A DNA stretch of 64,000 nucleotides from Psammoneis japonica (GCA_008632985.1 QPGO01000044.1:1-64000); one strand, 5' to 3'. Positions 7,261 through 62,534 are shown, counted from the first letter of the stretch. Notes: generated from the letters alone by a model not told the origin. Program-made: numbers and translations.

Positions 7261-7486
7261 TTGTCCTGAGGGATGTCTCCGCACGAGCGAAGGTCAAACG
7301 CCGAAAATGGCGTCCATTTTTCGCGCTCGCAACAAATCGCGTTGCGACCGCTTCATGCACCTAAGCGATCATGTTCTAGCCAATAACCAAAGACACTCTC
7401 TTCTATCTCCAATACTCTCTCGAGTCCTATAGAGACTCCCAATCGCGAGATCGCAAGGAAAACAGAAGATTTCCGAACGAGCTACG

Positions 7487-37470: not shown

Positions 37471-37656
37471 GTTGATGACGCACTCAGTCGTAATCCATGA
37501 TCAAGTTGAATCGTGACTCACATTTTCCTTCCAACGCCAACCAACGGTCGAGAATTTGAAAATTTCGGGAGCCTCAATGCCTGGAATGCGTTGAGCGATT
37601 CGACCCCCACCTCACGACCCTCACAAGAAAGGAGAGCACAATAAGTGCAACAATTG

Positions 37657-41815: not shown

Positions 41816-42049
41816 AAAACAAATCGAACGGCATTGTTTACATGATATCCACTAATTCTGCATAGTTGTGCCGAGCGTCACCCACATGAGGGGCGCTCGA
41901 ACTACTGCGTTCTGAGGGTCTTGTAGTCTTTGTACTTTCTTTTCATAGCTTGTTGTGATCGTTTCTTTTGAGATGGTTGATTTGCTTTGTAGAGCTTTAG
42001 GTTTGAGATATTATGATGCAACAGAGGAGAAGATTTCAAATGCAAATAA

Positions 42050-45000
42050 TGGTTACAGTGCTCACCTGTGGTCCTTTCGCGCGCCGCCTGTGCAGCGCTG
42101 AGCACGCAGGCAGTAAGCAAGGCAAGCAAGTGAGAGACCGAGAAGCGTCTGTCGTTGCTCACACTCCAATTGCTGCACGAAGGTGCAGCATTTTTCAAAA
42201 CGCGCTTTGTTCTGGTTTAAAGGATGGATCTCCGTGCTGCGGTCTGTTTTTTTTTTCAATCGTCCAGCTACGTAGGCAGCTCTTTATAAACTGTGTAGAA
42301 AATGCACCAGGGTTTGTGTAGAATTTGATGATGACACAATTCCATTTTGATGGCGACAAGTGGAAACACACATGGTTTTCCTGCACAAATTTGACAGTGA
42401 CGCCACAGACGGAATCATTGTCAACGTGCCAATCACTGCATCATTTCAGGTGTTTTGATCACAGGAAATTCCTTGTTTGTTGCTGAATTTCCCTGGACAA
42501 GGAAAGACAAGGAAACAAGAAAAGGAAAAATTGAGCAGTGGTTCAATGCGCAGTTGCAACCGTCATGATCCTTTCATCAAGTTGCCCGCAGACTTGGGTG
42601 GCCATGGGTGTGGGAGGAGGAAAATTGGTGTTTGGGAGTTGGGCGGTTGTGTTGCAGGGGGCAAGATGGGGTGAGCGGGTGGGTGGGTGGGTGGGTGCAT
42701 GGTCGGTGAGAAGGAATGCCCAGAAACATGGGTGACGATTGTTGATCAGTGGTGTCACAGGAGACGGTTGCAGGGCAATGGCAATGTGTCAGTTAAAGCA
42801 ATGAAAGGGGGGAGAAAAAAGAAAATGTGTGCTGCACGTTAAAGTGACAGTGCAGTTGGCAAACAAAAGAAACAAAGGGGGGGGGGAACATTGGGAAAGG
42901 GGATGTTCAAACAGGAACCGTGCAGAAAAGACATTGGGAATGTCGCAGACATGTTCATTTTCACAGTGGAAGAGCACTGTTGCAAAAGTGCTTGAGGGTG
43001 GAGGTGTCACAATGAACAATGTGCCCATGCAAGCAATCGTGACAATGATGGAGGGAAGTTTGGAGTGTTTCAAAAGCAAAGCACTGGAGTGTTTCTAAAA
43101 CAAAGTGGCGGCAGTGTTTCTGATGACGATGTGATGGAAAACAACAGGAATGGATGAAACAAGGGAGAGAAGGACAAGAAGAGAGGAAGGGAGGAAAGAA
43201 AGAATGATGAAAAAATTGGGAGATTGAAAAAGGGGCAAAAGAGAGAGAGAGAGCAGGAAGAAAGGAAGGCAGTCCGATCAGCTCCGATTCCGGTGGTGCC
43301 CATTTTGCCATGTCCTGTTCAGAATGATGCGGCATCATTGCATGATGCATGGAGTTCAAACATTTGCAGAAGGATGGAACAAGCCTGTTGTGTTTGGAGT
43401 GCAGTCAGTTTTGCTTGTGTTTGATTCAAAGCAAATGTCAAAACATGCCAGAGCAAAATTCAAGATGCGTCAACATTGGCAAGAGGTGGCTTCAAAGAGG
43501 AAGAAGTTGAGAACTGAAGTGCAAATAAAGAGAATGGAAAGTGCGTTCAAGAAAGGAATTGATGTGAAGAATGTGACAGTGGACAGTGCTGAAAAAGGCA
43601 AAGGAAAAACTTGGAAATGCAGGAAGTGTTTTGCAAAGCAGCCGCATGGTGTGACGGACTGAAGTTGTGTTGGATGTGTGTGATGGTGCAAAGGTGGAAT
43701 GCAAGGCAGAAGCAAGGAGGAAAGTGGACACATTTGATTTTGTTGATGACAATGAAGGAGAAGACAATGACACGTGGCTGCCAGAGGATGATGCAAAGGA
43801 AATTGAAAGGAAGAAGATTGTTGAACAAAAAAGGATCGAAAAAGAAAGCCGTGGAAAAGGGAAAGGAAAGAAAAAGAAATGGGTTGATGCAGAGGTTGCC
43901 AATGAGATTTGGTGGGAAAGCACAGCAAATGTAGAAGAGACACTTGCCAAGGAAAGAATTGGTGGCTCAGAAGAAGCACACAAATGGGGATTGGCAGTCT
44001 TTGTCCCCAAGATTCTTGTTTTAAGGATGGATCCACATGCTGCGGTCTGTTTTTTGGGAGCTCATGATTTTTATAAAAATGACCCTGGTTCATCACACCA
44101 AACATGTGCATTTGCCATTGGCAAAGTTTGTCCACTTCAAAGCATCATGGATTGCACAGACAATGGTCATGACTGTGCACAACTTTTACATTGTCAACTG
44201 CAGACATGTCCATGGCCAGTCAAATGCTGCCCATCGGATGTTCCCAGAAAGCTGCAGCCTGTCTCCCACAAGAAGCCCGATTTTGGCAATGACTGGCTTC
44301 TCTTTCAACCTGACAACAGGGCACAGGTCAACAAGTGGCACCTGAATCTTTGAATGTGCAGCTCTCATGCAGGTGTGACAGCCCTGAGAAGGGCTTGACA
44401 AACACACAAGTGCTTGGGGGTTCTCCAAAGCAGGTCAAAACAACATGACAAAGTGCAGAAATGCAAGCCATTTTAAATTAGACCGCAGCATGTAAATCCA
44501 TCCTCAACGCTGGATTGGCAAGCTTGCAATTTTTTGGAAAAAAAAAAACAGGATGGATCTGCGAGCTTGCAATTTTTTGAAAAAAGTCAGACACTCTGAA
44601 TGCACACACGTTTGCGAAAAAAAAATTCAGCAACAGGTCCAACTTTGTCCTTTTGTCAGACATCACAGAGTGCACAAGCAACAGTTGTGACCATGCATGA
44701 TCTTTGTCTTTAGCATGACTGCTGCAGACATGTCTGCAGCCAGCCACACGCCAATTGTTGGCATTTTCTGGAAAGTTCTTGTGGCTCATCTCCCCCAAGC
44801 AGTGCTTTTTGGCAAAAAATGGTGGTTTGTCAACAACTGCACCAAAACTGACAATTGGTGTTTGAAAGTTGAAATGTGTGGTTCACACACAGGTCTAGCA
44901 ATGGCCCTGATGGAGGCTGGATGCACTCACAAGTGTTTGCAAAACAACATGGGCAAAGTGCAGGAAAACAGGAAGAAATGTGAGCCAATTGAAAAATGCC

Positions 45001-48000
45001 TCTGCTTGACAATCTGTCATTGACTTTGCAAAGCTTTTCATTTTTTGCAACATGCAGCACACCTGATTTATGATGCAAGAACACCACAACTCATGAAATG
45101 TTCTCAGAGGAGCCCGGTTGCACATCTGACTTTAAAAAAAAAAAAAGCAGCCCGAGTTTTCAAGTGCTGTCAGCGCTTTTGCCCAGCAATGCTGACACCA
45201 GCTGACCCACACTTCCAGCACACTAAAACAGTGTGGCATGAGCAAGTGTGGTTGGCCAGAGTCAGCACCACCAGCAGGTGGCACCCAATGAAAGCAGCTG
45301 AGCATGGCACAGGTGTGGTGAAGCAACAGAAGTGCTTTGATTTCTTGGGATGTGTTCCAGCTGCACGTGAACCAAAGCACATGAAAATGACATTTGCACA
45401 ATTTTTGTGTGGCCTCTGACTGGCAAATGAGCTTTCACAACCAAAAGCACAGCTTTGTCTAAATTTTGATGTTTTGCAACACTGGCAAGACTCGTGTCAG
45501 TGTCACAGTGACATTGTTTTTGTGCAGTCAATTTTTTTCCATTGTGGCAGATGAGTTGTGATGCAACAGATGATTTTGCCACAATTTTTGAAGATTTGTG
45601 TGCCATTGCTGTTTGGAGGCTTGCAGCAGTGGTCTGCTTGCACACAATTCTCTGCAATGTGTGCACTTGCACACACAGTTGGTGTTGTTTCTGCAGAAAA
45701 ATTTTGTGACACATGCCCCGTGAAGACTTGAGCACTGATGAAAAAAGTGCTCAAATGTTCACACTCTGATCAAATGTAAAAGCCAGAGTGCACATGCATT
45801 TTCAATGAACAGCCTCAACACACAAAGCTCACACAAATTGTGCTCAAAAGGGAGTGTTGTTTTGTGCACTGCCTGGGGCTGGAGCATGTCTTGGGGCTGT
45901 TGCGCAATCCAGGCTTGACCACAACAACCCAATTCACAAGCCTCTTCATTGAGTGCTGCTTGCCCTCTGCCAAAGAATCCATCCAGCCAAACATTGTGGT
46001 CTTTTGCCAGATGTTTCTGTTGCTTTTGCTGAGCAGATTGCCTGGATTCCACATTGTGTCCACGAAAAGTCTTGTTGCGGGGTTTTCACCAAGCACTCCA
46101 AATGCACGGGCCAATTGGAGCTGACCAATCAGGGAAGGTCTCATTGTTTTCTTGATGTTGCCAGAGAATGCCCACCCCCTTTGCACAAGCCCATTGTGCT
46201 TTGTTCCAATTGTTGGAAAGTGCTGGCCACTGAAAATGTGGTGCCAACCAGTGGCTGACTGACAGAAGAACAGCTCACAAAGATGGGGGTCATCCTCATT
46301 TGTGCACAGGATCTCTTGCTTGAACCAAGACTCAATGGACAGGAATGAGAAGTCCCGCAATTGAGGCATTGTTTCAAGCTTGTCACAATGCTTGCACAAG
46401 CAATGTTTGTGCCTGGACATTCAATCAATGCTGGTGCATTGTGCACTCACCAACTTGCAACATGTGAAAAATGTGTGTGCTCCATGTGCAAAAACTGTTC
46501 AATGTGAAGAACCTGTGTGCAGTTGTGTGCCTTCCGACATGAGTGTTTGGCTTTTCAAGTTTGCAAAACTTGTCAAAATGCAATGACGATGGAGACCGCA
46601 AATGCAGCACACTCCATCAACAACCCAAACTCACCATGACACTGGCATGTGATGACAGCTTGAAATTGGTTTCACATGTGTGCACCTCACTGTGCTTTGA
46701 AATTGATTGATGGCAGCAAAAACAGCTGAAATGTTCAATTTTTTGTCAACCACATTTGTGAGTGCTGTTTGAACTGATCATTTGATTGCTGAAATTGCAA
46801 TGAAGACAATCAACAATGGCACACTCAATGCAAACTTGCACACCACCAATTGTGATCATGTTTGAATGTCAAAGCAGTTAAAATTCAGAAGCATTGGAAG
46901 GAGCATCATGTGTTGAGTGTCAAGAGAGAGGTTTGAAATTTTTGCAACAGCAGTCTTCCTGAGGACCTGTTGCACAACACGATTGGAGCAACACAGGCAG
47001 TCAACACAACACATTACAACCGGCAAATGCAATGGCAAGGAAGAAGGCGAGGAAGGAGAGGATGTTGGCAGAAGATGCCCCAAACAGCCCAAGGCCAACA
47101 GCAGTGTTGCAGCAGGTGGGAGCTGCTGGAGATCACCAATCTCTGAAGAGAGAGGTGGAAGAGGTGGCACAGAAAGAGCTCTTCCCAAAAGCAAAATTCC
47201 TGGTGAAGGCAGACATGGAGAGTGGTGGCAAGGTGTCATGGCCAATGCAGAAAAACATGGCCAATGGCAAGTTCAGCAAACAAGACTGGGCAGGATTGTG
47301 GGAAGACTGGGCAAAGAAGTGCATCCTTGATGCAATCAATGCAAAAAGGAACATCATGACCCAGATGACAATGAAGAGTGCAACAAGTGGCAAGTGCTGT
47401 GGGTTGCATTTCCAAGAGGGCATTGTGTGTGGTGCTGCCAACAAGACTCTCGTTTTTCTGCAGTTGTGATGACAGAAGAACAAGCCAAGAAAATCCATGA
47501 GAGAAAGAAACCTGCAAAGAGAGCAAGAACTAAAAACAAAAAAGGAGCAAAAAGACCCAAGCAGACATTGAAGAACAGTTCCTGGCAACTTGGGAAGATG
47601 AGACAGTGGACACCATTGTGAGTGAGAAGCGGAAGAACAAGGAGGCATGTGCCTGGTTCTGCGACAACATTCTAAAATTCATGAAGAGCACTGCAATGTG
47701 GAGAAGGATGGTGGAGTCCAACAACACAAAGGCTGCAGAGCCAACTGTGGCAAGCAACAAGGCACTGGCACTGTTGGTGTTGGAGAAAACTGCTGGAAGG
47801 TTTGGGAGCATAAATCCATGCAAGAAGGAAAGGACAAAGGGAGCGAAGAGGAGGAGAAGGAAACAAAACCAGTGCCCTTGCACACAGACCCATTGCAACA
47901 ACATGACTCTTGGAAGGATGAAGGAATGAAGTGATTCAATGCCCTGCTTGGGAAGGTGAAGGAGGACAAGGCAAGTGAGCCAGGTGTGTGCAGTGCAACA

Positions 48001-48500
48001 CATGGCACACCAACAGAAAGAAAAGGGAGAGCAAAGAAAAAGGAAAAAAGACAGAACCACTAAAAAAACAGCAGAGATGGAGACAAGAACACAAGCAATG
48101 ACAGAGCTTTCTAGCAACGATGAGGATGACAAAGACAAAATGGAAAAACTGAGCAACAGAAAGGACGAGGAAGAAGATGAAGAGAGTGAAGAAGACAACA
48201 ACACAATGAATGTGAAGCAAGTGCAGTGTGGGCCTGTTGCAAATGAAAAACGGCCGACACCACAGCATTGATTTGGCTTCATTGACAAGCCACGTGAAAC
48301 AGCAAAAGCAACAGCTCATTGTTCATGAGGAGTGCGGCACAAAGTTCATTGCACAATTCACATCAAACGCAAAAATTGCCATGTGACGTTGAAAAACAAA
48401 TGCTGTTGATTGTCAGCTTCTACAGTGAAAGAGGGCATGCACACCAACAGGACAAAGAGGAGGCTGTTCGACAGCAAATGATGATTTTTTGCAGTTAAGA
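42050..48500. repeat. Heavily decayed, unclassified TE-derived block
   Basis: TA/CG-depleted. Remnant ORF 47030-48270 (ELFPKAKF; WFCDNIL; SNKALALLVLE; acidic tail) looks like a decayed element-borne gene. A 25-bp motif is repeated at 42222, 44025 and, inverted, 44479. Confidence 0.55.
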
Positions 48501-48559
48501 TGAGGACTCCACAGCAAAATTAATTGTCTTTCACAGGCAATTGATCATTGCCAGCCACA

Positions 48560-48908
48560 CAACTGATGAGGTTTGAAACCATAAAAACAATGCCTGCAAA
48601 AGGAGTGAAAATTGCCATGACAAAGGAGGTGTCAATCACTGTCATGCACACTCTGATGCTTGACTGTTGCTTGTTTCTTGGAGAACCAATCAGCCGGAAA
48701 CTTGTTGAGGAAATGGATGATGCCCACAACAGAGTGTCCGGTGATCATGCAATGGAACAAGTTGGTGTTGACACAATGGGTCATGGTGACAAACATGCCA
48801 AGTGGCTTGGGCACATCTTGCGGGAGGAGCTCTTCTGCCTCCCCACACACAGACTGAGCCCAGTTGCACACAGGCTCAGGAAGGTCCAAACAGCTGGGTT
48901 CTTTGATG
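48560..48908 (-). mobile_element. Outer Copia element, RNase H part (continuation of 56817-61690)
   Basis: THCVNTNLFHCMITGHSVVGIIHFLNKFPADWFSKKQATV matches decayed YVDANL.H..TGRSVTG..PIDWYSKKQ.TVE. It joins the RT at 56817 across the TSD. Confidence 0.85.
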
Positions 48909-48913
48909 CACAC

Positions 48914-49150
48914 AGTCAAGATGCAGTCCTGCAGCTGGGTGGGATGGATGAGACCTCGGAGGTTGGCAGCAATGTGAGCAGCAACAGAGCAAACAGACGC
49001 TTGATTCAAAGTCGTTGTCTAAAAATTATGATGAAAGTCGTTGATTCTGTTTTGAATCGGATTGTTGTGATGAGCCAAATGTTTCAAAGAAAAGAGCTGA
49101 GTCTTGGTTGCAGTCGTGAAATGCGACCAGGATGACGTTGAGTTGTGACT
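48914..49150 (-). repeat. 3' LTR of the nested Copia (237 bp)
   Basis: Direct repeat of 56576-56811; termini AGTCA...TGACT. Confidence 0.95.
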
Positions 49151-51424
49151 CTCCCTCTCAACCGAGAGAGCTTGCCAGCCCACAAGAGCCTTTCTAGCTG
49201 CGCAGAACGCATCGGTCCGCAGTCCCTTCATGAACTGATTGGCCAGTTGCTCCAGAGTGCTGACAGGTTGGATGTTGATCTCCAATTGTTCGACTTTAGT
49301 CCTAAACCAGTGGTGTGGGATGCCGATGTGTTTGGTTCGCGGAGACAACTTGGGCATGCATGCGAACTTGAGGCACGCGGAGTTGTCTTCACACACAACG
49401 GACACAGGTGGGACATTCTGCTCAACAGGCGAGTCATTGGTGCCTTGGTTTGCGAGCTCAAAAGCCTTGGAGTGAGTCGTGATGGGGTTTTTGTGGTCAG
49501 ACTTTCCGAACACGTGGTGGTTGAGCTCCTTGAGAACTTCACGAATGGGGATGAGATCGTGCATGGCTTGAGAAAGTGTGGCACATTCCACTTCCACAGT
49601 GGACAATGCTGCAAGAGTCTGTGGCTTGAACACCCAGATGAGTGGGCAGCCAGCACAGTGGACAAGGTGTCCAGTCCTGGACTTGACAGAAACTGGGTCT
49701 TGACCATCTTCTACACCAAACAACCCCGTGAAGTCAGAATCAACGCAACAATCAACTCGATGATCTTGCGCAGGCTTGAGAATGAGACCTTCAGCAGCAG
49801 TGGCTTTGAGGTGTCGGAGCATCCGCTTTGCTGCAGCAGGGTGGGACACTCGGGGTGCAAATGAAAATCGAGCTGCTTGATGTGCAGCATGCGCAATGTC
49901 TGGCCGGCTGTTTGCTGCCAAGTGCATCAACATTCCAACAACTGAGCGATGATCGCAGGGTTCATCAAAAGGCAGGCCATCCATGTTGGCACCAACAGGC
50001 ACAGGCAGAGCTGGAGTGGATGCTCCATTGCAATCCTGCATCTGTGTGGCACGCAGGACCTTGTCAATTAGACCGGGTTGAGTGAGCAGAAATCGACCCT
50101 CAGAGAGCTTTTCGATCTTGATGCCGAGAAAGTTGCCGACTTCTCCTTCGTCTCTGAGTTCAAATGCATGTCGATGCTCGTCATTGGAGACTCCCAACTT
50201 GCAAATTTCTTCTTCTAAAGCTTCAGCTGAAGCTCCAGCAAATGCTGTGTCGTCAACGTGCACCACACACATCACACCCTCTTTGAAATACGAACAGGGG
50301 TCTGTGGCTGAAGGCACCCATCCGCACTTGATCAAACCAGCTTGTAACTTCTCGCAGAAGCCCTTGGGAGACTGTTTTAGGCCATGCAGTCCTTTCAAAA
50401 GTTTGAGGACCACATTGAGTCCTGACCTTGGCACAAAACCCTTCGACGGTGTTGCACAAACTTCCTCGGCGATGTCAGCTTGGCAGAAGGCTGTGGTGCA
50501 GTCCACCTGACGTGCAGTCCATCCTTCCTTCAATGCCGCAGCAAGCATGAGTCGGATGCTTGACCATTGCACGACCGGCGCACAGGTTTCAAAGTGATCC
50601 ACTCCTTCTTTCTGCAAATCACTGCGGACGCAGCATCAGGCCTTACACTTCAGAGGGGTTCCATCTGGGAGTCTCTTGAGCTCAAGTGCCCATGCACCTG
50701 GAAGCACATTCACACGCAGCTGACACTCGACTGCTTTCCAGGCTTGACGATGTGTGAGTGTGTTGACCTCAATTTTCATTGCCTCAATCCATTCATCAGT
50801 GTCCGGACCTTTCAGAGCATTGTGCAACGAGGGCACATCAGGGTCCTTGGTCTTCTTGCTGGGCTGCGCAGGCTCGTGGATCATCGATGTTGATGGCGCC
50901 ACTGTCCAAATCCGTCTCAAGAGTCTCCAGGTGCACCAGCTGAGCCTCGTGTCCAATCGGCATTGGCATTTCCTTGACGGAACTGAAGCAGACTTCGTCT
51001 GTGAACTTGGCAGAGTTGAGCTGTCCTTTGGTCGACCTTGAAGACCGTTGCAGCCCTGACACTCCCTCTGGATTCGTCACAGGAGGTGTCTTGACTGGGG
51101 GAGGAGCTGTTGGTTCCGTCGGCGCTTTGGGTGGCGGAAGTTCGTTGCTGTCTTGAGGTTCAGGTGGCTGAATTGGCACAGATTCCACAGAGTCTGCAGG
51201 AGTTTGAGTTGCAGGTGGGACTGGTGACGTTGGCTGTTGAGTGGCAGGCATGACTCGATTGGAAATGTTGTCACAAGCCTCTTTGCGTTGACGCTCTGGA
51301 GGGGTGAGCCACTCATTGTGCAGGTGGACCGTCTGATCCTTCTCCAGAGGGATGCATGTCAATTGGTTGAGACACAAGTGCTCCCAGTGATCAGGTGGAT
51401 CCGTCTCCCTCTTGATTGATGGTG

Positions 51425-51972
51425 CGATCCTTCCGAGATCAACAAGCTTCTGCAATGACTTCCAAGTTCAATGGTCGACTTGAGATTTTGGACGGTCCCA
51501 TCAACAAGCTTGACAAGGACCACTTCGTCAAGACCATCAGAGATCCAGTTGAAGCCCACGGCCAGCAGATGTTTTGCCATGTCAGGGACAGCGACAAAAA
51601 GGTTCAACATGTCTTTGATCATCTGCACGAGTTCACTGCGACCGATCTCGTGAACGAGTGCAAAACAGGAACGCAGCCACCAATGACACCAGGTGCGACG
51701 AGATTGAGCTCGATGATGTCGGGCTCTCTCAGCTCCTCGTTCACTTGAGAATCTCCAATGCCTTTTGCGAGAAAATCGAGACCAAGTTCAACCATCTCAA
51801 GGACCACCAAGACTGCCCTGGATCTGTTCCGTTCATGATGGCTCTCGACACTTGCAACACCAGCGCTCCAATGGACATTGAGACGGCTAAGAAGCAGCTA
51901 GAAGACCTCAGTTTGGCCAACCATCCTGGCGAGGATTGCACGGACTTTGCTGCCAAAGCTCTTCGCATTGTG
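51425..51972 (+). repeat. Inverted copy of the element's own gag segment (55631-56179) inserted in pol
   Basis: Colinear with the reverse complement of 55631-56179. The insertion 51425-52156 is flanked by duplicated tctccctcttgat(tgat)ggtg. Confidence 0.92.
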
Positions 51973-54900
51973 TGAGCCCACTCAGAGCAGAAATCAGCGT
52001 GGACAAAACCAGTGGTGCCGCAGGAGCTGGTGCCGCTGTCGCGGTTTCCTCCCACTTGACACCAAAGCACACTTTCTGCTGTGCAAACTCTGTTTTTCTA
52101 CTCGTCATGCATGTGCGTAGAACTTGACGCTCATTCACATGGCTTCATTCCTCAACTCTCCCTCTTGATGGTGACACGGCAGTGAAGAGATGGTCAAAGA
52201 CCACATGACACTGAGGAGCGACGCTTCCATTTTGAAGATTGAGGACCAAAGGAACCTCAACCAAAGGAACCTCACTGGAATGGATGGCACTGAGTCCCAC
52301 GAACAAAGCGTGACAAGTGCGTGGTTCCCAACGTGGGAGTTTCTTTCCGGAGGCGAGTTTCGGATCAAGGACGTACGCTGGACATCCCCATGTGTGAATG
52401 TCTTGCAACCGATGTTGAGGCACTGTTGAACCAGCGAAAATGTCCGCTGGGCAATGTCCCTTGGAATTTGGGGTGACATTGTAGATGTGCGTGGCACAAG
52501 AAACAGCCATGGGCCACAGGGAGCTGTCAATCCCTCCCTTCCAGTGGATGGATGCATGAAGCAACATTGCTCTCGCCATGTTGGAGATGCTTTGGATGCC
52601 CCGCTCTGCAACGCCATTCTGATGATGAGCATTGGTTCCACAAAAACGGAGACGTTGTTCATGTTCTCGTGTGTGTTGCACAAAAGCGTTGGCCTTGAAG
52701 GGGCCACTGTTGGCAAGAAATTCTTGGACGATTGCACTGTGGTCCAAAGCATGTTTCTCACATGCTTGCTTCGCTTGCATCGTCTTGACAGCGGAGAAAC
52801 CCAGTTGATGCTAGACCTGGATGCATCCAGAAGCATGGTCGACAAAGATGCAACCGCCCTTGAATTGCTTGGATGTGGCTTTCCCACATGAGTCAAAGGT
52901 TCGGCCTGAAAGGCGCGACTCAAAATGATCAATGCTGACAGCCTGACCCGGTCGAAGATGGTCAGCGCAAAGGGCCCCATTGCGTTCAGGGACTGTTGAC
53001 TTGTGGGTAGATTCAAGAGAGCGTCTTTGACCTTTGGCATGCTCGCACACCTCGCATCTTGGGTGGTCACACTTCGCTGTGGACTTGAAACGGTTTGACA
53101 GGAACGGAGCTGCGCGGAGAAGTGCTTGGACTTGACCAAAGTTTAAATGACCAAAACGGGTGTGCATTTCGAGAAGAAGCTTTTGGCCTGCCGTGAGATT
53201 CTGGTTCTCCTTGTTGAGGATTTGTGGATTCACTTGGGGAGCTTCAGATGCACCCTTGGTCATTGACGCAACAGGCAAGTGGCTGGATTGGTGACATGGC
53301 ATGACCAACTTGCCCATCCCATCAACATGTAAACGGAAAGTGCTTTCATCACCCTCATGCTTCCCACATGCACCTTTCTCTTCGTCAAAGAGGCATTGAG
53401 GCGATGGCAGGCATTGACGGGCTCCAGGGATGCAATGTGCCATGGTGTTCAGCTGGATGGCAGCACCACTTGGCATTGTGAACACCCACGCAACCGGACC
53501 GGTCCCCTGGATGGTGAGACTGTTGGCAATCCCATTGATCTGCAAGGGTTTCTTGGGAACAGTCATGGGTCCTGTGAAATCATCTTTGTCGGAGGCACCA
53601 GCATCCATGACGACCGTGAGGGCCTCATTGGACAGACCGATGAGTGCCTGCAGATCGGATGCAAGAAGGTTGGCTTGAGATTGTCTGGTGAGCAGTTGGA
53701 TGGTGGAGGTGTTGTAGACAACTGGTCTAACACGTGCTTCTTCCAGCAGTTCCACAGGATCTTGAACATGGGCAGTGTCCACGACGTGATTGGGCAGACA
53801 GAGCTCATCGAACTGGAAGAAATCAGGGCTGAAATCCTCAAGAGCGTCAAAGAAGTGCTTCTGGTCGTCGAGAGGTTCCAATTCCTCACAGGTGTCAAAG
53901 AAGGCTGATTCGTCTGTCATGTCAGACCGTTCAGCTACTTCTGGGGTCTCCCAGCAGGCCTTGAGACGAGTGCTCAGTGCGTGTGACGGATGGCGTGCAA
54001 CAAACTCGGTGAGCACTTGCGTGCCCTTGATCCTGTGACATTCGAACAGTGACCCCGCATCCAACACTATCCGGTCATCTGGCTCTTCCACAATGTGGTA
54101 GACTTGAGAGCTGGCGGTCGAAAAACGGCTTGGCACGTTCAAGAATGGATGCTCGGGCTGTTGACCGGCGTAAACTGTGGACCACACCACAACTGCAACG
54201 GATGGGACCATCCAGGAGGCTGGAAACCCGTGCAAGGTTGGGAGTTTGCGCTGGCGGCATAGAGCTCGAGGGATGCTTGGGATCGGAGCAAAGCAAAGAT
54301 GCAACGCCGTTTCCCAAAACATGGTGGCGAGCCAGAACATGAAGAGCTTGACTCGTCCCAAAAACGATCGACGCGAAGTGGGTTCCTCTTCGACGTCCTC
54401 ATGACAATCATCCGCATCCAGGGTCTCTGGATCGTAGAAATCGAAGCCACGATGTGTAACACACGGAGGTGAGTCGTCGCAAGCGTCTTCAAAGTGCACT
54501 TCGTGTTCAAGAATGAGATCTGACTTGGTGTCATCTGACAGCATGTCCGTCAAATTTGCGGGAGCGTCAAAGAACTCATCTGGATGCTTGACAGAGTGCA
54601 GCTTCGAGGCCGGAAACAACTCAACAGCTGGTGGTTCGTTCTCAAATGCAGATGAAGCGTTGGAGCATTCGCAGAAGTCATCGGCGTCTTCGGGAGTGAC
54701 GGTCTCAACCACGATGGGAGACACAACTGGATCCATGACTGAGGTGAGTGCAGGTGGGCTTGTTTCGTTGCAGAGCACCTCAGTGCTAATGACTGCATCG
54801 CTCTCCCTCTCGGCCGAAGAAGCCGGAGTGACAACAATTGCCACAGTGTCGGCAACGGCGTCCGTAGCCGCGCACCACATTCCCGTGAAAACCAACTCGT

Positions 54901-56575
54901 TCGGATCGGACTCGTCTCCCTCTGGTTCCTTGGCAGTCTGAGCTGGCGGACCCATGGGCATGCCACTATCTGGATCAGCTACAGAAGACAAATTTCCCAC
55001 TGGGGTTTCCTTGGGAGCATGCTTGAAGTCGTCCTTGTGTTCCGCGGTAGAGTGACGTTGGCAGACTCCAGGTTTGTCGGCACCCTTCACCGTGCATGTG
55101 GCACACCACTTCCATTCCTTGCCATTCTTATCCTTCTTCGTTTCTCCGTCAAATTTAGTGCACCAGGCAGCGATGGGTTTCCGCTTCTTCTTGGAAGGGT
55201 CATCTGCAGGCGGTGGATTCGTAGGAGGATCGTCGCGCGGTGGTGTGGCGTTGCACTTCGGGCATGTCTTCTTGGTGCACCCCTCGAGACCGCACCCAAA
55301 ACAATGCTTCATCTTCCCAGGGTTGTCCGCAGTCGAAAGGTTGCTCTCGGGTAGCTCAGCAACCAATGCAGGCCACTCCCCGTCCTTCACGAGCTCGTTG
55401 TGTTGCTCTTGAATCCACGCAATGATGCCGACTGGTCCGAGCGTGTTGCAATCGCTGTCTGACTTGATGTCGGCAGGATTCTTGAGGCGGCACTTGTGTT
55501 CCATAGCTTTAACGTCGTCAAGCTTGTTGTGGACTCTCTGATTGAAGCATTCAGAGGACGTTTTGGAAATCTTGTGAAGTGGCTTGGAGCTTGTGTTCAC
55601 CGGAAGCGCGCAGTCGGTCTGCATGATCTTCACAATGCAAAGAGCTTCGGTGGCAAAGTCTGTGCAATCCTCGCCGGGATGATTGGTCAAACTGAGGTCT
55701 TCTGGCTGCTTCTTGGCCGTCTCAACATCCGTTAGAGTGCTGGCATTGCAAGTGTCGAGAGCCATCATGAATGGAACTGATCCAGGGCAGTCTTGGCAGT
55801 CCTTGAGATGGTTGAACTTGGTCTCGATTTTCTGCGAAAGGCATTGGAGATTCTCGAGTGAATGAGGAGCTGAGAGAGCCCGACATCATCGAGCTCGATC
55901 TCGTCACACCTGGTGTCGTCGGTGGCTGCGTTCCTGGTTTTGCACTCGTTCACGAGATCGGTCACAGTGAACTCGTGTAGATGATCGAAGACATGTTGAA
56001 CCTTTTTGTCGCTGTTCTTGACATGGCAAAACATCTGCTGGGCCGTGGACTTCAACTGGATCTCGAACAGTCTTGACGAAGTGGTCCTTGTCAAGCTCGT
56101 TGATGGGACCGTCCGAAATCTCAAGTCAACCGTTGAACTTGGAAGTCATTGCAGAAGCTTGTTGATCTCGGAGGGATCGTTCTATCGAGTCAAGAGCCTT
56201 GGGATGATGGCGCTGAGAGGCGAGTCGGCAGGTTCTGTCGTTGGTTTGGTCGCACATGTCGTCGAGTTGGGAACCACCAATGTAGACCCCGTGGGTTTGG
56301 TGAATTCCACCACGTGACGGCTTGGTTGGAGGCGGAGGAACGCTCGCAGCGGTGTCAGCGGCCACAGCAGCGGCAAACGCCTTCGCCAGGACGTCCGAAT
56401 TGATGGCAGTCATGACAGAGAGTGCAGTGTGGGAGGTTCTTGTTGGAATGAAGACAAGAGAAGCAAGTGAGGCTCAGCCATTTCCCGGGTTTGCTTCAAA
56501 ATCAAAACCAAAAGCGTCCGTGATGATGACTCGGTCAGGAGCTCTCGTCAACGCGCAAACTTGGTCTCCACAACC

Positions 56576-56811
56576 AGTCAAGATGCAGTCCTGCAGCTGG
56601 GCAGGATGGATGAGACCTCGAGGTTGGCAGCAATGTGAGTGGCAACAGAGCAAACAGACGCTTGATTCAAAGTCGTTGTCTAAAAATTATGACGAAAGTC
56701 GTTGATTCTGTTTTGAATCAGATTGTTGTGATGAGCCAAACATTTCGAAGAAAAGAGCTGAGTCTGGGTTGCAGTCGTGAAATGCGACCAGGATGATGTT
56801 GAGTCGTGACT
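56576..56811 (-). repeat. 5' LTR of the nested Copia (236 bp)
   Basis: Direct repeat of 48914-49150. Followed on the minus strand by GGTTGTGG, a candidate mutated PBS. Confidence 0.95.
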
Positions 56812-56816
56812 CACAC

Positions 56817-59800
56817 TCAGAGGGCACCATGTCGCATCTTGGACAGTCATCTGCAGACATGTTTGGCACAATCTAGATGGCCTTGATGGGGTGCCGTGTG
56901 GAAGCTGGACAGGGACATGACAGCCGCAGTGATGTCAATGTGACCAAGTGATGCAGCCCATTGTGGGAAATCAATCAAGGACTGGAGTTGGTGGATGCCA
57001 TCAGGGCTGAGCAGCTCAGAGGTGTCGGGCTCAGGGTGGTCTCCCTTTTGCCAGCATGAGGCTTTTCCCCAAAGAGGTGTGCACAGTTGTCAACCATGTG
57101 CTCAACGCACTTGCAAGGAGCAAGGCACAGTGCGCCATTGGAGTCATGGGAGAAGTTGCAACCAAGGTGAAACTCCAATGATCCAGCACCCTTGAGCTTG
57201 AACTTGCACTTCTCTGTGAGAGTGTCTGCAAAAGCCTGAGGATCCTTCATGGCAAAGGCTGGGTTGTCCATGCACACTGCCACACATTCACAATGACTGC
57301 CACTCTGGCACAACCAGATGTCGGGTTTGGCACAGGCACGGGAAGAAATCTTCAGCACAAAAGCATTCATGCCACCTGAGGCTGGAGCTGCAGAGACCAT
57401 GTGGAGCCTTGTGAATGACAATGATGTGTCCTTCCAATTGGCTGAATTTGGGGCCTGCCACAATGTGCAGTTTCTCCTTGGTTGTGGCTTTGAGATGGGC
57501 ATTGCTGATGTTGGTCACCCAAGTCTCCAGGTCATTTTGAGTTGGGCCCAGGAAGATCATCAGTCGGAGGCCACAGAGGGACACTGCTCCAGAGTGGACA
57601 CTGTTGACAGGCACATCTGTGAGGTGTCCATCAGCAACAAGAGTTGTGCTTTCTGCCTGCCATCATGTTTGACTCCACAGACAAGATGCGCCCCAATCTT
57701 CTTGTGTCCTGCTGGGGCACTGGAGTCCTTGCAGTGTCCGCAATTGTGAAAGACCTCACACTCACCAAGCTGATTCATCTCAAGGTTCGTTGCGCCTCCC
57801 CATTTGTGGTTGCCGTTGCACTTGTCAAGGGCCAAGGCATGCTTGCAGTCCCGGGCACTTCACACCTGCACTTGCATCATGGCACAGTGCAAAAGGAGTG
57901 CAGCTTGGCTTGATTGGCCGTGCGGAACAGCTTCTTCTGGCACAGGGCTGCAGTTCAGAAGTGTTTCCAACCTTTGGTTTCAAGCAAACCATGTTCACGT
58001 GTGCAGATGGCACAGGTGATGGGAATGTCCTTGGCAATGATGGCAAGAGGTTTGGACGTGATCTCCCCATTCTCCCATTCAAGCATGACTTTGCAGCTTG
58101 AGCCTTTCCAAGAGGGGTCATGAGGTCTCAATGGTCCTTCATGTGAAACAATGTGCCGGAACTTCGAGAGAGTGGAGTCCTCATCTTCTTGCTCAATGTG
58201 GTGCATGATGTTGTTGCAGGCAAGGATTTCCTTGCGCTCATTGTTGTTGATGGAGCAGATGAATTTGACCAGTTCCAGGTTGTTGCCAATTTCCCAGTCA
58301 TGGTCTTCAACGGCCTTGATGATGTGGGCTCTACTGTGTTGTCTGTCCTCTTGTAGCTTCATGAGGAAGGTGCGACCAGTGATGTCCTCGGGGTCAAAAA
58401 CCGGCATGTTGGGCATCCTGATTGCCTCCCCATCTAGTGAATCCTTGGAATCGTGTCAGGATTTGATGATGGGTTCAGCAGATTTTCCATCAGGAGGGTC
58501 AAGACACAAGTTGGAAGTGGATGGGTCTTTGGCAGAATGCACGTTTTAGTGGCAAAGAATCTTCTGAGTGTCAGCAGAAAGAATTTTGAATGTCATTTCA
58601 TGACCCACGTGTTTGGCAATGCCGACAAAGCGATCGCATGACTCGCGGGATTCAGACAGCCAGTCAGAATCATCCAGGTGGTGGCACATGGGTTCCCACC
58701 ATTGAAAGCAGAGAAGGGGGCTGATGTCGGGGGTGGAGCCAGACAGCACTTCAGTGGGAGTGTGCCAGTGAAGCTTGGCAGATGTGTGGTTGAGCACAAA
58801 GCAGATGCACATGATGGTGAGGAGCCAGGTGCAGGCCGGGGATCCAAAGCAATCCATGATGGTGTTGGCCATGTTTTTCACAGTTTGGCAGTGACATTCA
58901 GCAAAATTCTGGTGCTGTTGATTGGGCTTGCTTTGCCAGCTAGAGATGAAGAGGGCATGGAAGATGCAGAGAACCTTGTTGCTGATCTCAACCTGAGCAT
59001 GATCACTGATGAGTTTGGACGGAGCACCATGGTTGCAAATGTTGTCTTCAAGAATGTCAATGAATTCCTTGCCAGTCTTGGTGCCAAACATGTCCATGAC
59101 AAGGGATCACGCACCAATGAAAAGCTGTGCACTGACACATCCAGAGTCAATGGCAGGGGTGTCAGAGTGCACTGTGTCAGCGGCAATGAGTTCATCATGT
59201 CGGTGGACATTGAGAGCCGGGTTGGGTGACTTGTGCACCTTTTTCAGGTGCATGATGGCGGGCATGCTGTGTCATGCAATCAAAAGCACGGCAAACAGTG
59301 TCTTTCAGGAGGAAGCCAAAATGAGGGCAGAGGGGCTCACAGTCAGGGTCCTTGGGGTTGATCTTGCGCTCATGGCATTTGCAGAAGAAATCAACATCAA
59401 GAGAATGTGTGATCATCAAGGATGGAGTCTGCAAACATGGCATTGTTGATGACATGTTGGTGATGACAGTTGCCGAACTCATCAAAGAGGTTGGAAGTCG
59501 GGTTGTCTTGGAGGTTGGACATGGCATCGCACCACGTCTCATCATCTGTGAACCGGTGGTCGAGGGCAGATGGGTCCCAGGTGTCATCACCAGTGAGGAT
59601 GACACATGGGGCAGAGTGTCCCACTCGGCATTGGTGTGCAGGTGCATGGCGATGTGTGGCAGGCTGCCTTTGATGTTGACAGGAGTGATGCACCCATCAA
59701 CGGTGGTGATGCGCTGCAGGCCATTGGCAACCTTGATCGACCGATCATTGATGCTGTGCTTGTGCCACTCAAGTTGGCTGCAAGAGCGCATGGTCTTGCC

Positions 59801-61690
59801 CTTTCCAGTGCAGGCAAGCTGGTGAAGGATGGCAATGATGGGTCCACGTTGTGTGTAGATCACACCACTGGCAGTGACAATGGGAGTGTCAACAAGCTGA
59901 CAGTTGTCGACACCTTGCACATCAACTTGGCAATCAGTGTGGGCAATGACACAAGCATCATCACCAGCGATGCCGCCGTTCACACCACGATCCATGAGAG
60001 CACCCTTGCGAGTCAAGTTGTGGGTCGAGGTGGAGCAGACAACATTGTGGTTGTTGACGCGATGGCAAGTGTGACCACTGTTGTCAGTGTCGGCAGCAGC
60101 ATCACGTGAGGATGTTGATCCAGGGGGCTTCTTGCCAGAGTGGGCCGAGGGTGGCCGGTTGGGTGCAAGAAGACATTGCAAGTCACCAGGTGGCAGAGGC
60201 TTGCACCTGGTGAGATGCACCAGGATGGGGTCAGCATCAGTTTCATTGGCTGCAGCATCGGGTGGTTCAGGGGCCAACGCAAGATTGCAAGCATTGGCAG
60301 GCAAGTTGACATCGCCATCGCTGCCCAGACAGAGGTCATGCAGGTTGACAGCCATCAAGTCATGGCAGTTGCTGGTGTGGGCAGTGCACGAGCCAAGGAT
60401 GATGGCCTTGGTGGACTGGGGCAAGGTGTCCCAGATGTGCTGGTGATCTGGTGGAATGTGACACCACTGTTCCCTGGTGAGGGAGTTGCCGTGAGTCTGT
60501 GCCGCATGAGCTTGAATGATGTCAATGTCGCTGTTGATGTTGAATGACACATCATCATCAGGGTCACAGGGAGCCAGGTCATGGGCACAGATGGCACAGT
60601 GCAGGGCACGGGAGGCTGTCTTGGGTGTGAATGTGCTGTTGCACTGTGCCGCCACAGAAAGCAGGAGCCCACAACGTTGCTTGTGTGAAAGGCTCATGCC
60701 ATTCTGTGTGCGACATTGGTCAGCTTGGTTCTTTGCCGAACAGAGTTCTTTGACAGGATGAACGGCATTCTCTGGCATGATGCATTTCCGGCCAGCAGAG
60801 AAGCAGTCTGCAGTTGGGATCAGAGCTTCACACTTGCGGAGTTGGTCCTGCCAGTGAAGTGTGAAGGCATGGGTGGAGCCTTTCCAGGTGCCATCACCAA
60901 GGCGAGCGGTGGCAAGGAGGTGCATGAGAAGGGTCGATGACTCCAGGGATGCACAAGCAGATGCAAGGGCATGCTTGGATGGTTCGCGGTGCACTGCTTG
61001 GGCATCAGAGGAGCCAACATGTTCATGAACTAGTGCCTTGCCTTTGTCATTTTGCATGATGCATTCAAACATGGCAAACATGTGCTTCTGTTGTTTGGCG
61101 AATGGGGCCTTTTCCTCAGCTGCAGAGAGCTTGTGTGTCAGATCAAGGATGTGGTCGACGTCCTGAGAGCGGGCCTGTGCAACAACAGAGGTGTGCCATG
61201 TGTGCCACTGTTTGACAGACTTGAGAGTCGCGAAGGCAAGTGGGTCACATCTGATGCCTTGTTCAAAGTCACACACAGGGTCACGTGGTTTTGGGGGCAA
61301 TGAGCCAGGTGTGGGAGCAGATGGCACCGCACCCACGGAGAGGGATGCTGCACACTCAGGACCAAGATGATGGTTGGCAAACTCTTCATGTGTGAACAAG
61401 GTGGGGTTTTTGCTGACATCGGCACCTCCACACATTTTTGCCGTGTGCAGACCAATCAATGCAGCCATCTGTGCCTTGCAACCGCATGGCAAGGGCGTTT
61501 GATTGGCGCCGTCATTGCAATGAGCTGGGGCACTGAGTTGCGTCAGGGCAAAAGTCAAGAGATCCTGGTGTGAGTTGGTGCCATCAATGCTGAGTGCAGA
61601 GCACAATGGACTGTCTGCGGCTTGATTCAGAACAGTGCCTGCATTGTGCTTGAAACCATTGGTTTGTTGCTGCCTGGTGAGGACCATGGT
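56817..61690 (-). mobile_element. Outer, older Ty1/Copia element (gag-PR-INT-RT), strongly decayed
   Basis: gag from ~61687 (MVLTRQQ); protease LMDRGVNGG; integrase SDHAQVE and HQNFAEC; RT HLVCGVKHDGRQKA, ISNAHLKA, KAPHGLCSS, CVAVCMDN, FHLGC. No LTR identified. Confidence 0.9.
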
Positions 61691-62534
61691 GCAACTGAGT
61701 GGGTGCCGGGACTGGAGTTGGAGAGCGAGCTTGAAACAACTTGAAACTTGACTTGAAACTTGGGACTTGAAGTCTTGAACCATCTTGCAAATCAGAAGCC
61801 ACCGGGCTGTGACATCCTGTTCACAGCCAGATGCTGAGCTTCCCATCCGGTCTGCAGAGTTGTGCCGGCATGCCCGAACCCGCAGCTGTTGATGCTTTGG
61901 GTTGCCTGAGAGCGGAGTGACGGGTTAAAAAGCCCTGCTGACAAGCCAACTGGAGGTGGACAAAACCTCTGAACCTTTGTTGTTTTGTGTCGGTTGGATG
62001 ACCCGATCAGGCCGGCCAAGCAAGGCGCTGTGGAGGAAGGAACAAACGCAGGAAAATCACCCTTGCCCCAACACAAGCTGCAGCCGCAGATGCTTTCTCT
62101 CACAGTTGTCCTTGTGGACCTTGTGGAACTGCAGAAGACCAGCAGTCCGGGGCAGATGCGGAGCAATGGACTTGGCGTGCGTGCAGCAGGTTGGTCTGTC
62201 TGTCAACCTGGGCAGGATCCGCTGAAGGGAATTTGGAACCCCAAGTGCCGGAGGATGTGGGAATTCCTGAGTGAACAAATGATGTCCATTGAGCTGACAC
62301 ATTCAGCAAGGTGGGCACATGCTCCCACCCCAACAATGTGCTTCGTGGAAAAATTTCTCGATGACGATGATGAGCACTCAATGGACGAAGATGAGCGAGA
62401 CTGTCAATCTGACAGAAATTGAAGACAACTGGGTGGAAGAAAACAGTGACTCCTTGCTGCTGTCCAAATGGCAGATGAGTCTCCGTGCAGAGACCGTTGC
62501 AGGAGCCGAAAGACTGGCATCGTGATGTCAGTGC

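Follow-up and report, generated by a model that had tools for sequence, protein, structure and literature searches.

The stretch of Psammoneis japonica DNA analysed here (GCA_008632985.1, QPGO01000044.1:1–64000; all 64,000 nt are called the window) raises the question of why its repeats have almost no TA dinucleotides, while its genes have plenty. An earlier note, made from the sequence alone, had described this pattern for the transposable element (TE) blocks and attributed it to a DNA-level mutator that converts TpA to TpG or CpA in repeats with a RIP-like logic. Sliding-window observed/expected (o/e) ratios bear the pattern out. TA o/e is 0.06 in the pooled repeat/TE blocks (154 TA in 39,302 nt) versus 0.57 in the gene blocks (1006 TA in 24,402 nt), and genes and TEs thus differ in the very ratio on which the idea depended. 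CG is lowered as well (o/e 0.40 versus 0.90), CA (1.73 versus 1.21) and TG (1.67 versus 1.22) are raised, and the TE-versus-gene gap for the other 12 dinucleotides, AA, AT and TT included, is at most 0.08 (AA: 1.22 versus 1.20). Counts from the pooled blocks correspond to a loss of about 1263 TA and 1217 CG and a gain of about 2386 CA plus TG. The dearth of TA in the repeat blocks is confirmed as real and large.

Its borders are sharp. Per 1-kb interval, 0–14 TAs are found in repeat blocks and 28–60 in genes, with 20 and 14 in intervals straddling a border. At 250-bp resolution, TA density switches at about 3.69–3.85, 5.88–6.02, 7.24–7.36, 24.75, 37.64–37.76 and 42.32 kb. Block 1 (1–3692) has 3–11 TA per kb, dense TAs first appear at 3693–3850, and a weak gag_pre-integrase match lies at 319–813 on the plus strand (Pfam E 0.0023, below cut-off). 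Block 2 (5877–7235) holds three TAs in total between 5876 and 7236, with CG o/e 0.15 over 6001–7000; a Pfam search of the five ORFs of at least 90 aa in or overlapping it gave no match and no recognisable domain. Block 3 (24755–37641, delimited by TA counts and border positions) contains the longest run without TA (1892 bp, 35291–37183) and, in its 29–37 kb part, the strongest CpG decay (o/e 0.04–0.18). It also carries a degenerate PIF/Harbinger-like DDE transposase frame on the minus strand (25423–25953), a weak match (DDE_Tnp_4 E 5.9e-4, 19.9 bits versus a Pfam cut-off of 24.8), whose translation does read ADGGC as had been noticed before. Block 4 (42320 to the window end at 64000) encloses an LTR element; dense TA stops at 42319 and the next TA is at 42794. 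At this border a unique-depth contig (41724–42329) ends within 10 bp of the start of the TA-free zone, and the depth bin spanning it (42003–42669) has a value of 1055 versus 89 in the preceding bin.

The depletion is restricted to these blocks and host genes are spared, with the TE identity of most blocks being assumed: only 1 of 198 ORFs from the repeat blocks passed the Pfam cut-off and repeat depth covers 42–58 kb alone, so the TE label is an assumption for much of their length. The depleted DNA includes the weakly matching DDE-transposase remnant and unclassifiable single-depth DNA.

The direction of change can be read from the Copia element in block 4. Its RT/RNase H frame (49022–50635, minus strand, 538 aa, RVT_2 E 1.3e-26) has HVDD for YVDD and translates to DHFETCAP, LHGLKQ, VVHVDD, CCVDSD, VCEDN and PHHWFR at conserved positions. 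Compared with 150 homologues, Tyr is kept in 0 of 11 consensus-Tyr columns (7 His, 4 Cys), and non-Tyr consensus residues are retained at 46–100%. The proposed replacement of Tyr by His or Cys therefore holds in all 11 columns, and one of the examples given for it, YEDN, is not confirmed, since the homologue majority in that column is Phe. By protein polarisation, the 64 changed consensus columns comprise 19 single-step TA losses, 9 CpG losses, no TA gain and 1 CpG gain, which is the direction from TA to TG or CA suggested previously; the remaining 35 are of no diagnostic type, a point against. The seven nearest relatives, run through the same pipeline, show 8 TA losses in 269 changed columns and keep Tyr in 8–11 of 11 (Fisher p = 1.4e-9). 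Both strands are affected, as had been claimed, with 9 TA>TG and 10 TA>CA changes in the sense strand. Among 266 database Copia proteins, five carry the same Tyr>His/Cys pattern. Against this stands the Copia gag-protease-integrase region (52049–53908, minus strand), located by tblastn with the 266 Copia proteins and by weak SH3_retrovirus and gag_pre-integrase matches: its four consensus-Tyr columns hold one Tyr and three Phe, and Phe is not a product of such a process. The substitutions are shown to be A:T>G:C transitions at TpA, with TpG and CpA as products.

The rate of loss depends on the base that follows the target A. With gene DNA as the context baseline, TA-loss rates are 0.44 for A, 0.89 for G, 1.78 for C and 2.21 for T (likelihood ratio test, chi2 120.6, 3 df). 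At the target site the 5′ T is absolute, and on the 3′ side C and T are both favoured over G and A. TAY is thus shown to be lost faster than TAG, and TAG faster than TAA, and this order recurs in metagenome loci that are independent and partly depleted (L070/L059 and L068).

CpG decay through deamination of 5-methylcytosine in diatom TEs likewise ends in TG and CA and occurs in the same blocks, but it cannot remove TA. The earlier note had considered it powerless to explain the TpA loss, and related loci agree. In 80 related Copia loci TA o/e is 0.31–0.98 and none is lower, although six of them have CG o/e 0.20–0.28; CpG-decayed Copia loci elsewhere still have TA o/e 0.44–0.73, and the closest relatives from the same Copia lineage have 0.44–0.75. 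Loci L059 and L070 have lost TA though their CG o/e is near 1, and TE intervals of the window with CG o/e 0.71–0.92 are already down to 0.09–0.20 for TA. CpG decay accounts for part of the CA/TG gain and does not explain any of the TA loss. Diatom TEs are described as major targets of CG methylation (PMC9998398).

Copies within the window bear on the timing of the loss. The Copia LTRs, both on the minus strand (48913–49157, the 3′ LTR in element orientation, and 56575–56818, the 5′ LTR), are 93.9% identical. Eleven of their differing bases are CA/TG doubles or CG<->TG/CA, as previously counted, out of 14 differing bases in total rather than 12. These TG/CA doubles are weaker evidence than had been assumed, because an ancestral CG can also yield them, and the TG/CA differences exceed the CpG-decay prediction only marginally. 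A gag segment (55631–56196, minus strand) has an inverted copy at 51409–51972 (plus strand, 91% identity), which shows the element to be rearranged or nested. This pair shows 5 TA<->TG/CA differences, 5 CA/TG doubles and 21 CG<->TG/CA differences, and the individual examples pointed out before (51888, 51899, 51625 and 51805–51806) are present in the sequence as described. Over both copy pairs, 26 differences are CG<->TG/CA, 8 CA/TG doubles compare with about 3.7 expected under CpG decay (p = 0.035), and TA<->TG/CA makes up 5 of 11 non-CpG transitions versus 1.9 expected (p = 0.027). The case for post-insertion TA loss in the copy pairs is marginal. At the 21 best-supported positions (48590–56353) where all other contigs differ from the window, 11 read CG elsewhere against TG/CA in the window and none reads TA, so most of the TA loss may be common to the copies, or the loss may be saturated.

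Three gene duplicates retain their TAs (82% identity over 957 columns, 93.6% over 551 and 70.6% over 1039). Shared TAs number 25 of 37 and 20 of 22–23, with an ordinary mix of substitutions. The mutator thus appears not to be triggered by sequence duplication as such. This sets it apart from fungal RIP, which acts on duplicated DNA as such, above thresholds, whereas here the duplicates of 82% and 93.6% identity retain their TAs. RIP changes C to T at CpA and so creates TpA, whereas TpA is destroyed here (TA o/e 0.06, CA o/e 1.73), in keeping with the earlier description of a defence running opposite to fungal RIP. Both share dinucleotide-specific transitions on both strands that strike mobile DNA, spare genes and are detected by dinucleotide indices.

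The closest described process is that of the rhizarian alga Bigelowiella natans. A mutation-accumulation experiment in this species yielded, within integrated viral DNA, new A:T>G:C changes at TpA and nowhere else (Mettrop et al., preprint 10.64898/2026.01.13.699255). Of 231 new mutations in two viral insertions, 230 were A>G or T>C changes, each of them at a TpA; they arose in resident single-copy DNA, and the rate is about 1e-7 to 1e-6 per site and generation. The long-term footprint consists of 1-kb clusters depleted of TpA and enriched in CpA and TpG, with DDE-endonuclease and RT domains enriched among the coding sequences; an NCLDV region has Rho 0.45 and a virophage region is still TpA-rich. 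The authors read this as genome defence and favour adenine deamination (10.64898/2026.01.13.699255). The window is like B. natans in the restriction to A:T>G:C at TpA, in the TpG and CpA products and in the confinement to mobile or foreign DNA. It is unlike it in a host with diatom-like genes, in the saturation of all repeat blocks and in the co-occurring CpG decay.

The signature was therefore known before, shown experimentally in B. natans, and the process is no longer undescribed in general; for diatoms, where the earlier note knew of no description, literature searches returned no report. The words "flanking", "trinucleotide", "diatom" and "stramenopile" do not occur in the main text of the preprint, and the TAY>TAG>TAA order is accordingly absent there (10.64898/2026.01.13.699255). 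Nothing in the literature covered matched the diatom host, the degree of saturation, the preference for a 3′ pyrimidine or a TA loss separable from CpG decay.

Based on this dataset, we hypothesize a repeat-restricted, DNA-level TpA->TpG/CpA hypermutation by an adenine deaminase that spares genes, and put the probability of this whole explanation at roughly 0.7. Direction, TpA specificity, strand symmetry, sharp restriction to repeats and flanking preference are direct results; together with the spared genes and the B. natans parallel, they support the mutator that had been proposed. The T:A pair of 5′-TA-3′ would be turned into C:G on either strand until TA is nearly gone. Chromosomal DNA would be mutated in place, by analogy with what was measured in B. 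natans, and it would probably be the silenced chromatin of mobile DNA that attracts the process, rather than sequence duplication as such. Chemically, a polynucleotide adenine deaminase may convert adenine to hypoxanthine, which is read as G. Mobile elements would be inactivated fast and irreversibly, their catalytic Tyr becoming His or Cys, and the stop codons TAA and TAG would be erased as a side effect.

As to the enzyme, TadA and ADAT2-3 likewise target an A after U or T, and their natural substrates are RNA loops, whereas the target here is DNA. The editing site of bacterial TadA lies within UACG, where its action changes Tyr codons (UAC) to Cys (PMC11472039), and both the TAY preference and the change of Tyr to Cys in the window are parallel to this; by this analogy the 5′-T/3′-pyrimidine preference may recall the UAC(G) specificity of TadA and suggest a candidate deaminase. 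The only ADAT2 with measured DNA activity, BjADAT2, is described as preferring adenine in GAA, not TA (PMC10354150).

Among the alternatives, an attack on thymine survives best, though we regard it as unlikely. TET/JBP-type oxidation would convert T at silenced TpA to 5-hydroxymethyluracil or a further modified base, and mispairing with G or faulty excision would give T>C. Since TA is palindromic, direction, symmetry and TAY context fit equally well with an enzyme that is directed at T and prefers RTA, and in dinoflagellate DNA 5-hydroxymethyluracil is enriched at TpA and TpC. Such bases are not known from direct evidence in diatoms, though, the B. natans authors prefer adenine deamination (10.64898/2026.01.13.699255), and the enzymatic parallel for a 5′ T with a 3′ C is TadA (PMC11472039), none having been found for T-oxidases.

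Less probable still is editing of RNA or cDNA in the transposition cycle, fixed at integration and leaving resident DNA unmutated. ADAR and APOBEC3 also inactivate repeats and viruses by mutation through deaminases. They act on RNA or cDNA with a strand bias, APOBEC changes C and not A, and ADAR prefers a 3′ G, which is the reverse of the TAY order. The best-supported private differences are of CpG type and not of TA type, which fits TA loss at insertion, and reverse transcription can produce LTR differences. Yet the two strands are equally affected (9 versus 10), non-retroelement repeats have lost TA too, all repeat blocks being depleted together with the DDE remnant and the unclassifiable single-depth DNA, and an RT with every Tyr replaced would be unable to copy itself. 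ADAR does favour a 5′ U, as stated in the Discussion of the B. natans preprint. The B. natans mutations arose in resident single-copy DNA (10.64898/2026.01.13.699255).

A sequencing artefact, in which modified bases at the TAs of repeat DNA are miscalled as G or C while the genome truly has TA, is highly improbable. It draws on the fact that the only read run with this stretch (X1, library type not on record) is possibly the assembly's own sample. Exact 31-mer contigs at 58–79x, which need accurate reads, differ at 0–1 positions from the TA-free DNA over 44627–45490, 45469–46742 and 48082–48574; accurate reads, which the earlier note allowed might show TA, thus reproduce the TA-free sequence at about 60x and make a base-calling artefact unlikely. 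The independent metagenome assemblies (L059, L070 and L068) and the five of 266 Copia proteins, all with the same Tyr>His/Cys pattern, likewise argue against it, as do the Illumina data from B. natans, in which new mutations emerged over time (10.64898/2026.01.13.699255).

Error-prone repair synthesis concentrated in heterochromatin, of the Pol-eta-like WA>WG type, would explain A>G after a 5′ T on both strands. WA includes AA, however, and the fact that AA is not depleted in repeats speaks against this alternative of the earlier note, which we consider about as improbable as an artefact; a roughly tenfold, near-complete loss of one dinucleotide would also be unlike a polymerase error spectrum. 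Composition or selection, with elements arriving TA-poor by horizontal transfer or with TA/UA counter-selected in transcripts, can point to the mild under-representation of TA in most genomes, in the window's genes (0.57) and in related Copia loci (0.31–0.98), but is barely credible, as selection would not exchange the catalytic Tyr (YVDD to HVDD) at all 11 of the conserved columns, the depletion is common to unrelated repeat blocks and the closest same-lineage Copia relatives retain TA at 0.44–0.75.

Returning to adenine deamination of repeat DNA, a bolder version may be entertained tentatively, though we find it more doubtful than probable: a TAY-specific DNA base-editing defence, independent of cytosine methylation, probably TadA-like and widespread across SAR-lineage protists, which would be saturating here and faster than CpG decay on every repeat class. 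Such a SAR-wide reading covers diatoms, chlorarachniophytes and further environmental taxa.

If the pattern is genome-wide, a defence known from one 2026 preprint on one rhizarian alga would be at work in a diatom-like stramenopile too, and with far greater thoroughness, and would be a candidate general eukaryotic system and not a curiosity. The responsible enzyme could be sought by comparing deaminase-fold and TET/JBP genes of the present species and B. natans, with diatoms whose Copia elements retain TAs as the subtraction set and the TAY preference as a biochemical fingerprint for matching candidates. Base-editing research would be interested in a natural enzyme of defined specificity that edits adenine (or thymine) in DNA. 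With TA o/e, any genome can be screened for the process in one line. In practice, too, the repeat blocks here, which lack TAA and TAG, give rise to long ORFs that are spurious and lead gene callers astray.

Dinucleotide observed/expected ratios (o/e) were computed along the window, with 39,302 nt of repeat blocks set against 24,402 nt of gene blocks. Judged by TA counts and o/e, four blocks are depleted (1–3.69 kb, 5.88–7.24 kb, 24.76–37.64 kb and 42.32–64 kb), holding 0–14 TA per kb versus 28–60 in the intervening gene DNA; the two 1-kb windows lying across a border contain 20 and 14. The dearth of TA in repeats described in an earlier note is thereby confirmed: TA o/e is 0.06 in repeat blocks (154 sites) and 0.57 in gene blocks (1006 sites), it is at most 0.20 in 40/40 one-kb repeat windows, and the longest TA-free run measures 1892 bp. 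CG o/e is 0.40 in repeat blocks versus 0.90 in gene blocks, CA 1.73 versus 1.21, and TG 1.67 versus 1.22, while the remaining twelve dinucleotides, AA included, differ by no more than 0.08. If the repeat blocks began with the ratios of the genes, they have lost approximately 1263 TA and 1217 CG and gained approximately 2386 CA+TG, a gain that balances the losses if TA and CG both became TG/CA. The borders of the depletion are sharp. At 42320, a contig of unique depth (41724–42329) ends no more than 10 bp from where the TA-free zone starts, and the depth bin across this border (42003–42669) reaches 1055, versus 89 in the preceding bin.

The direction of change was read from the RT/RNase H frame of a Copia element (49022–50635, minus strand; RVT_2, E 1.3e-26), onto which 150 homologues were projected; in 230 columns a single residue accounts for at least 50%. 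The frame keeps the majority residue in 166/230 columns, but in 0/11 of those with majority Tyr, which now read His (7) or Cys (4), so that YVDD has become HVDD. Other classes are kept far better (Leu 24/32, Gly 15/19, Asp 13/16, Pro 14/15, Arg 11/12, His 4/4). At the codon level, 19 of the 64 changed columns lie one TA>TG or TA>CA step from the majority residue, including, beyond Tyr>His/Cys, the changes Val>Ala, Ile>Met, Ile>Val, Lys>Glu, Thr>Ala and Leu>Pro; 9 fit a loss of CpG, 1 fits a gain of CpG, none fits a gain of TA, and 35 match no such step. The seven nearest metagenome relatives (52–56% identity, two of them near-duplicates) served as control in the same pipeline; of their 269 changed columns, 8 fit a loss and 5 a gain of TA, and they retain 8–11 of the 11 Tyr (Fisher p = 1.4e-9 for the contrast with the window). 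Against a larger set of 266 Copia proteins, RT/RNase H has 14 consensus-Tyr columns, of which 9 read His, 3 Cys, 2 Phe and none Tyr, and the integrase region has four, of which 1 reads Tyr and 3 Phe; Tyr>Phe in the integrase region is not a product of the TA to TG/CA process. These data bear out the replacement of Tyr by His or Cys reported in the earlier note, and support its core reading of a TpA to TpG/CpA hypermutation restricted to repeats.

The 154 surviving TA sites stand in non-random contexts, with survival relative to the expectation from gene DNA of 0.41 for TTAA, 0.15 for CTAG, 0.02 for GTAC and 0 for ATAT. A model in which both adenines of each TA site are lost at a rate set by the 3′ neighbour, with gene DNA as proxy baseline, fits 16/16 contexts (likelihood-ratio chi2 120.6, 3 df). 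The rates (95% bootstrap) are 0.44 (0.23–0.66) for a 3′ A, 0.89 (0.69–1.14) for G, 1.78 (1.54–2.18) for C and 2.21 (1.95–2.58) for T, which gives the order TAY > TAG > TAA. In agreement with the model prediction, Tyr codons after a purine became His in 6/7 cases and those after a pyrimidine Cys in 3/4, in a small sample (Fisher p = 0.088). Two further, partly depleted elements from metagenomes (L070/L059 and L068) display losses confined to TAT and TAC (rates 0.6–1.4), with TAA and TAG near zero (−0.11 to 0.28), on a proxy baseline of the other 77 metagenome loci.

A single relevant work was found in the literature, a 2026 bioRxiv preprint on Bigelowiella natans (10.64898/2026.01.13.699255). 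In mutation-accumulation lines of this species, 230 of 231 mutations in integrated NCLDV and virophage DNA are reported as A>G or T>C, all 230 of them on TpA, at a rate of about 6e-7 in viral insertions versus 3.5e-10 elsewhere and in some lines only; the genome contains clusters depleted of TpA and enriched in CpA and TpG, and its low-TpA coding sequences are enriched in DDE-endonuclease and RT domains (10.64898/2026.01.13.699255). The window is a further case of this very recently described hypermutation. It shares the TpA signature and differs in that it comes from another supergroup, is saturated, and concerns a retroelement and other repeat DNA. The main text of the preprint mentions neither diatoms nor stramenopiles nor flanking context, and no earlier account of a flanking preference of TpA loss was found in the literature. 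The statement in the earlier note that no such process is known in diatoms thus stands as far as our search goes, although a process of this kind has been described in B. natans. What the window adds is that the host is diatom-like, that saturation extends across the repeat classes, that TAY is preferred and that the loss of TA can be separated from CpG decay.

As mutator, the authors of the preprint propose an ADAT2-like DNA adenine deaminase (10.64898/2026.01.13.699255). Bacterial TadA is reported to edit within UACG, recoding Tyr to Cys (PMC11472039), a specificity that parallels the preference of the window for a 5′ T and a 3′ pyrimidine. On the other hand, the single ADAT2 whose activity on DNA has been measured prefers GAA (PMC10354150), which does not match the TA target seen here. 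Since TA reads the same on both strands, an enzyme that acts on the thymine and prefers RTA would fit the sequence data equally well.

CpG decay, which does accompany the loss of TA and is accounted for by the CG methylation of transposable elements reported in diatoms (PMC9998398), is ruled out as its cause. TA o/e ranges from 0.31 to 0.98 across 80 related Copia loci, and six of these with CG o/e of 0.20–0.28 retain a TA o/e of 0.44–0.73. Conversely, TA has been lost in L070/L059 at a CG o/e near 1, and in the least CpG-decayed windows of the LTR element (CG o/e 0.71–0.92) TA o/e is already 0.09–0.20. CpG-decayed loci keep TA and TA falls without CpG decay, so the loss of TA is separable from, and faster than, CpG decay. 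The Pol-eta-like repair considered in the earlier note (WA>WG) predicts a depletion of AA; this was not borne out, as AA o/e is 1.22 in repeats versus 1.20 in genes. ADAR-type editing is rejected because the TA-loss columns divide into 9 TA>TG and 10 TA>CA on the sense strand, that is, both strands are equally affected. Selection cannot account for the loss of catalytic Tyr, and a horizontal origin of the elements was likewise rejected.

Hypermutation of TpA does not appear to be triggered by duplication as such, because three gene duplicates retain TA with an ordinary mix of substitutions. These are a duplicate of about 950 bp (7728–8662 and 40029–40985; 82% identity) with normal TA content (37 each), a tandem pair of about 550 bp at 21.4–22.5 kb (21368–21914 and 21910–22459; 93.6% identity), and an inverted pair of glycosyltransferase-61 (GT61) paralogues (16763–17786 and 18924–19950; 70.6% identity), the latter two not TA-depleted either. 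CA/TG changes make up 2/31, 0/3 and 4/73 of the double differences in the gene duplicates, and 8/10 in two transposon pairs. Both copies of the 950-bp duplicate adjoin TA-depleted blocks, and their substitution mix is ordinary. Besides the GT61 paralogues, the window genes encode G6PD, sugar and triose-phosphate transporters and a 2Fe-2S thioredoxin-like protein. Among the best named matches of G6PD, at no more than 64% identity, the great majority come from diatoms, and those at the top do so without exception; the host is thus diatom-like and not Bigelowiella, and the collection searched contains no close relative of it.

The Copia element, which corresponds to the stretch given in the earlier note (48914–56811), lies on the minus strand between LTRs at 48913–49157 and 56575–56818 (93.9% identity). 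Its gag-protease-integrase region (52049–53908, minus strand) was recognized by tblastn with the 266 Copia proteins, which match the window only at 49046–51419 and 52049–53908, and by weak Pfam matches. A gag segment is present in two copies, inverted relative to each other (51409–51972 and 55631–56196; 91% identity), which indicates that the element is rearranged. The LTRs differ at 14 bases (3 CA/TG doubles, 5 CG<->TG/CA, 3 transversions), and the gag copies at 47 (21 CG<->TG/CA, 5 TA<->TG/CA, 5 CA/TG doubles, 9 others). Differences between the LTRs are rich in TG/CA and CG, as the earlier note had pointed out; the doubles are weaker evidence for TpA loss than it assumed, and we downgraded them as proof of mutation after insertion, since they can equally arise from a CG in the ancestor that mutated on a different strand in each copy, and their excess over the two pairs is marginal (8 seen versus about 3.7 expected from shared and single CpG counts, p = 0.035). 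TA<->TG/CA changes account for 5/11 non-CpG transitions, versus 1.9 expected (p = 0.027). Among the 21 best-supported positions at which all other genomic copies differ from the window copy, 11 are CG elsewhere versus TG/CA here and none is TA elsewhere; the loss of TA is therefore either saturated in all copies or largely inherited by them.

Summed contig depth at 42–58 kb is 120–8658, i.e. repeated, versus 89–197 in gene bins (single contigs there 53–68x); the blocks outside 42–58 kb are putative repeats, classed as such by composition only. Pfam returned one match above cut-off from 198 ORFs of at least 90 aa in repeat blocks and a few weak ones, among them a DDE_Tnp_4 (Harbinger-type) remnant at 25423–25953 and a gag_pre-integrase trace at 319–813. 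No copy of the RT above 69% identity was found in the protein collection. The least decayed repeat DNA of the window is the LTR-element part 53450–56450 (CG o/e 0.71–0.92, TA o/e 0.11–0.20), which has no domain recognisable by Pfam or tblastn downstream of 53908 and may have entered the element later or from a foreign source.

TAA and TAG occur 1.7 and 1.1 times per kb per strand in repeat blocks (genes 9.4 each), and this near-absence leaves 202 stop-free frames of at least 90 aa; gene callers should be expected to report spurious long ORFs there. Two of these frames span 1024 aa (52814–55885, minus strand; a weak gag_pre-integrase match only) and 909 aa (59198–61924, minus strand; no Pfam match). 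On the plus strand, CA o/e (2.2–2.4) strongly exceeds TG o/e (1.6–1.8) at 59001–61000, and the skew is reversed at 30–31 kb and 47–49 kb; the original composition of the DNA or a strand bias of the mutations could account for this.

Among the public sequencing runs, X1 is the one real match to the window; X2 and X3 contain next to none of its words, and no RNA run was among the matches listed. Contigs built from X1 k-mers at 58–79x show 0–1 differences to TA-free DNA at 44627–45490, 45469–46742 and 48082–48574, and agree equally well with the genes. Exact 31-mer contigs at this depth require accurate reads; X1 may be the own sample of the assembly, with no library type on record, and is thus not a fully independent check. 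Five of the 266 Copia proteins, from other sources (P0230, P0176, P0283, P0276 and P0136), contain less than 1.2% Tyr and raised His and Cys, and the named relatives of P0230 in a homologue search are diatoms. L070/L059 (L070:1428-5045 equals L059:687-4304, one element seen twice) and L068 carry Tyr>His/Cys in 5–7 of 12 consensus columns at a TA o/e of 0.1–0.35 and a CG o/e of about 1. These proteins and loci are independent support against an artefact. In the two metagenome elements the footprint matches that of the window but is less far advanced.

The assembly contains a lone N at 3054, within the first repeat block. At 38001–40668, X1 yields an exact contig (58.6x) and a second one of equal depth (67.5x) with 47 differing positions and 12 gaps over 38585–39027, and X2 contigs over the window genes are about 10% different, which suggests that the sample contains a diverged second haplotype, a paralogous region or the genome of a relative.
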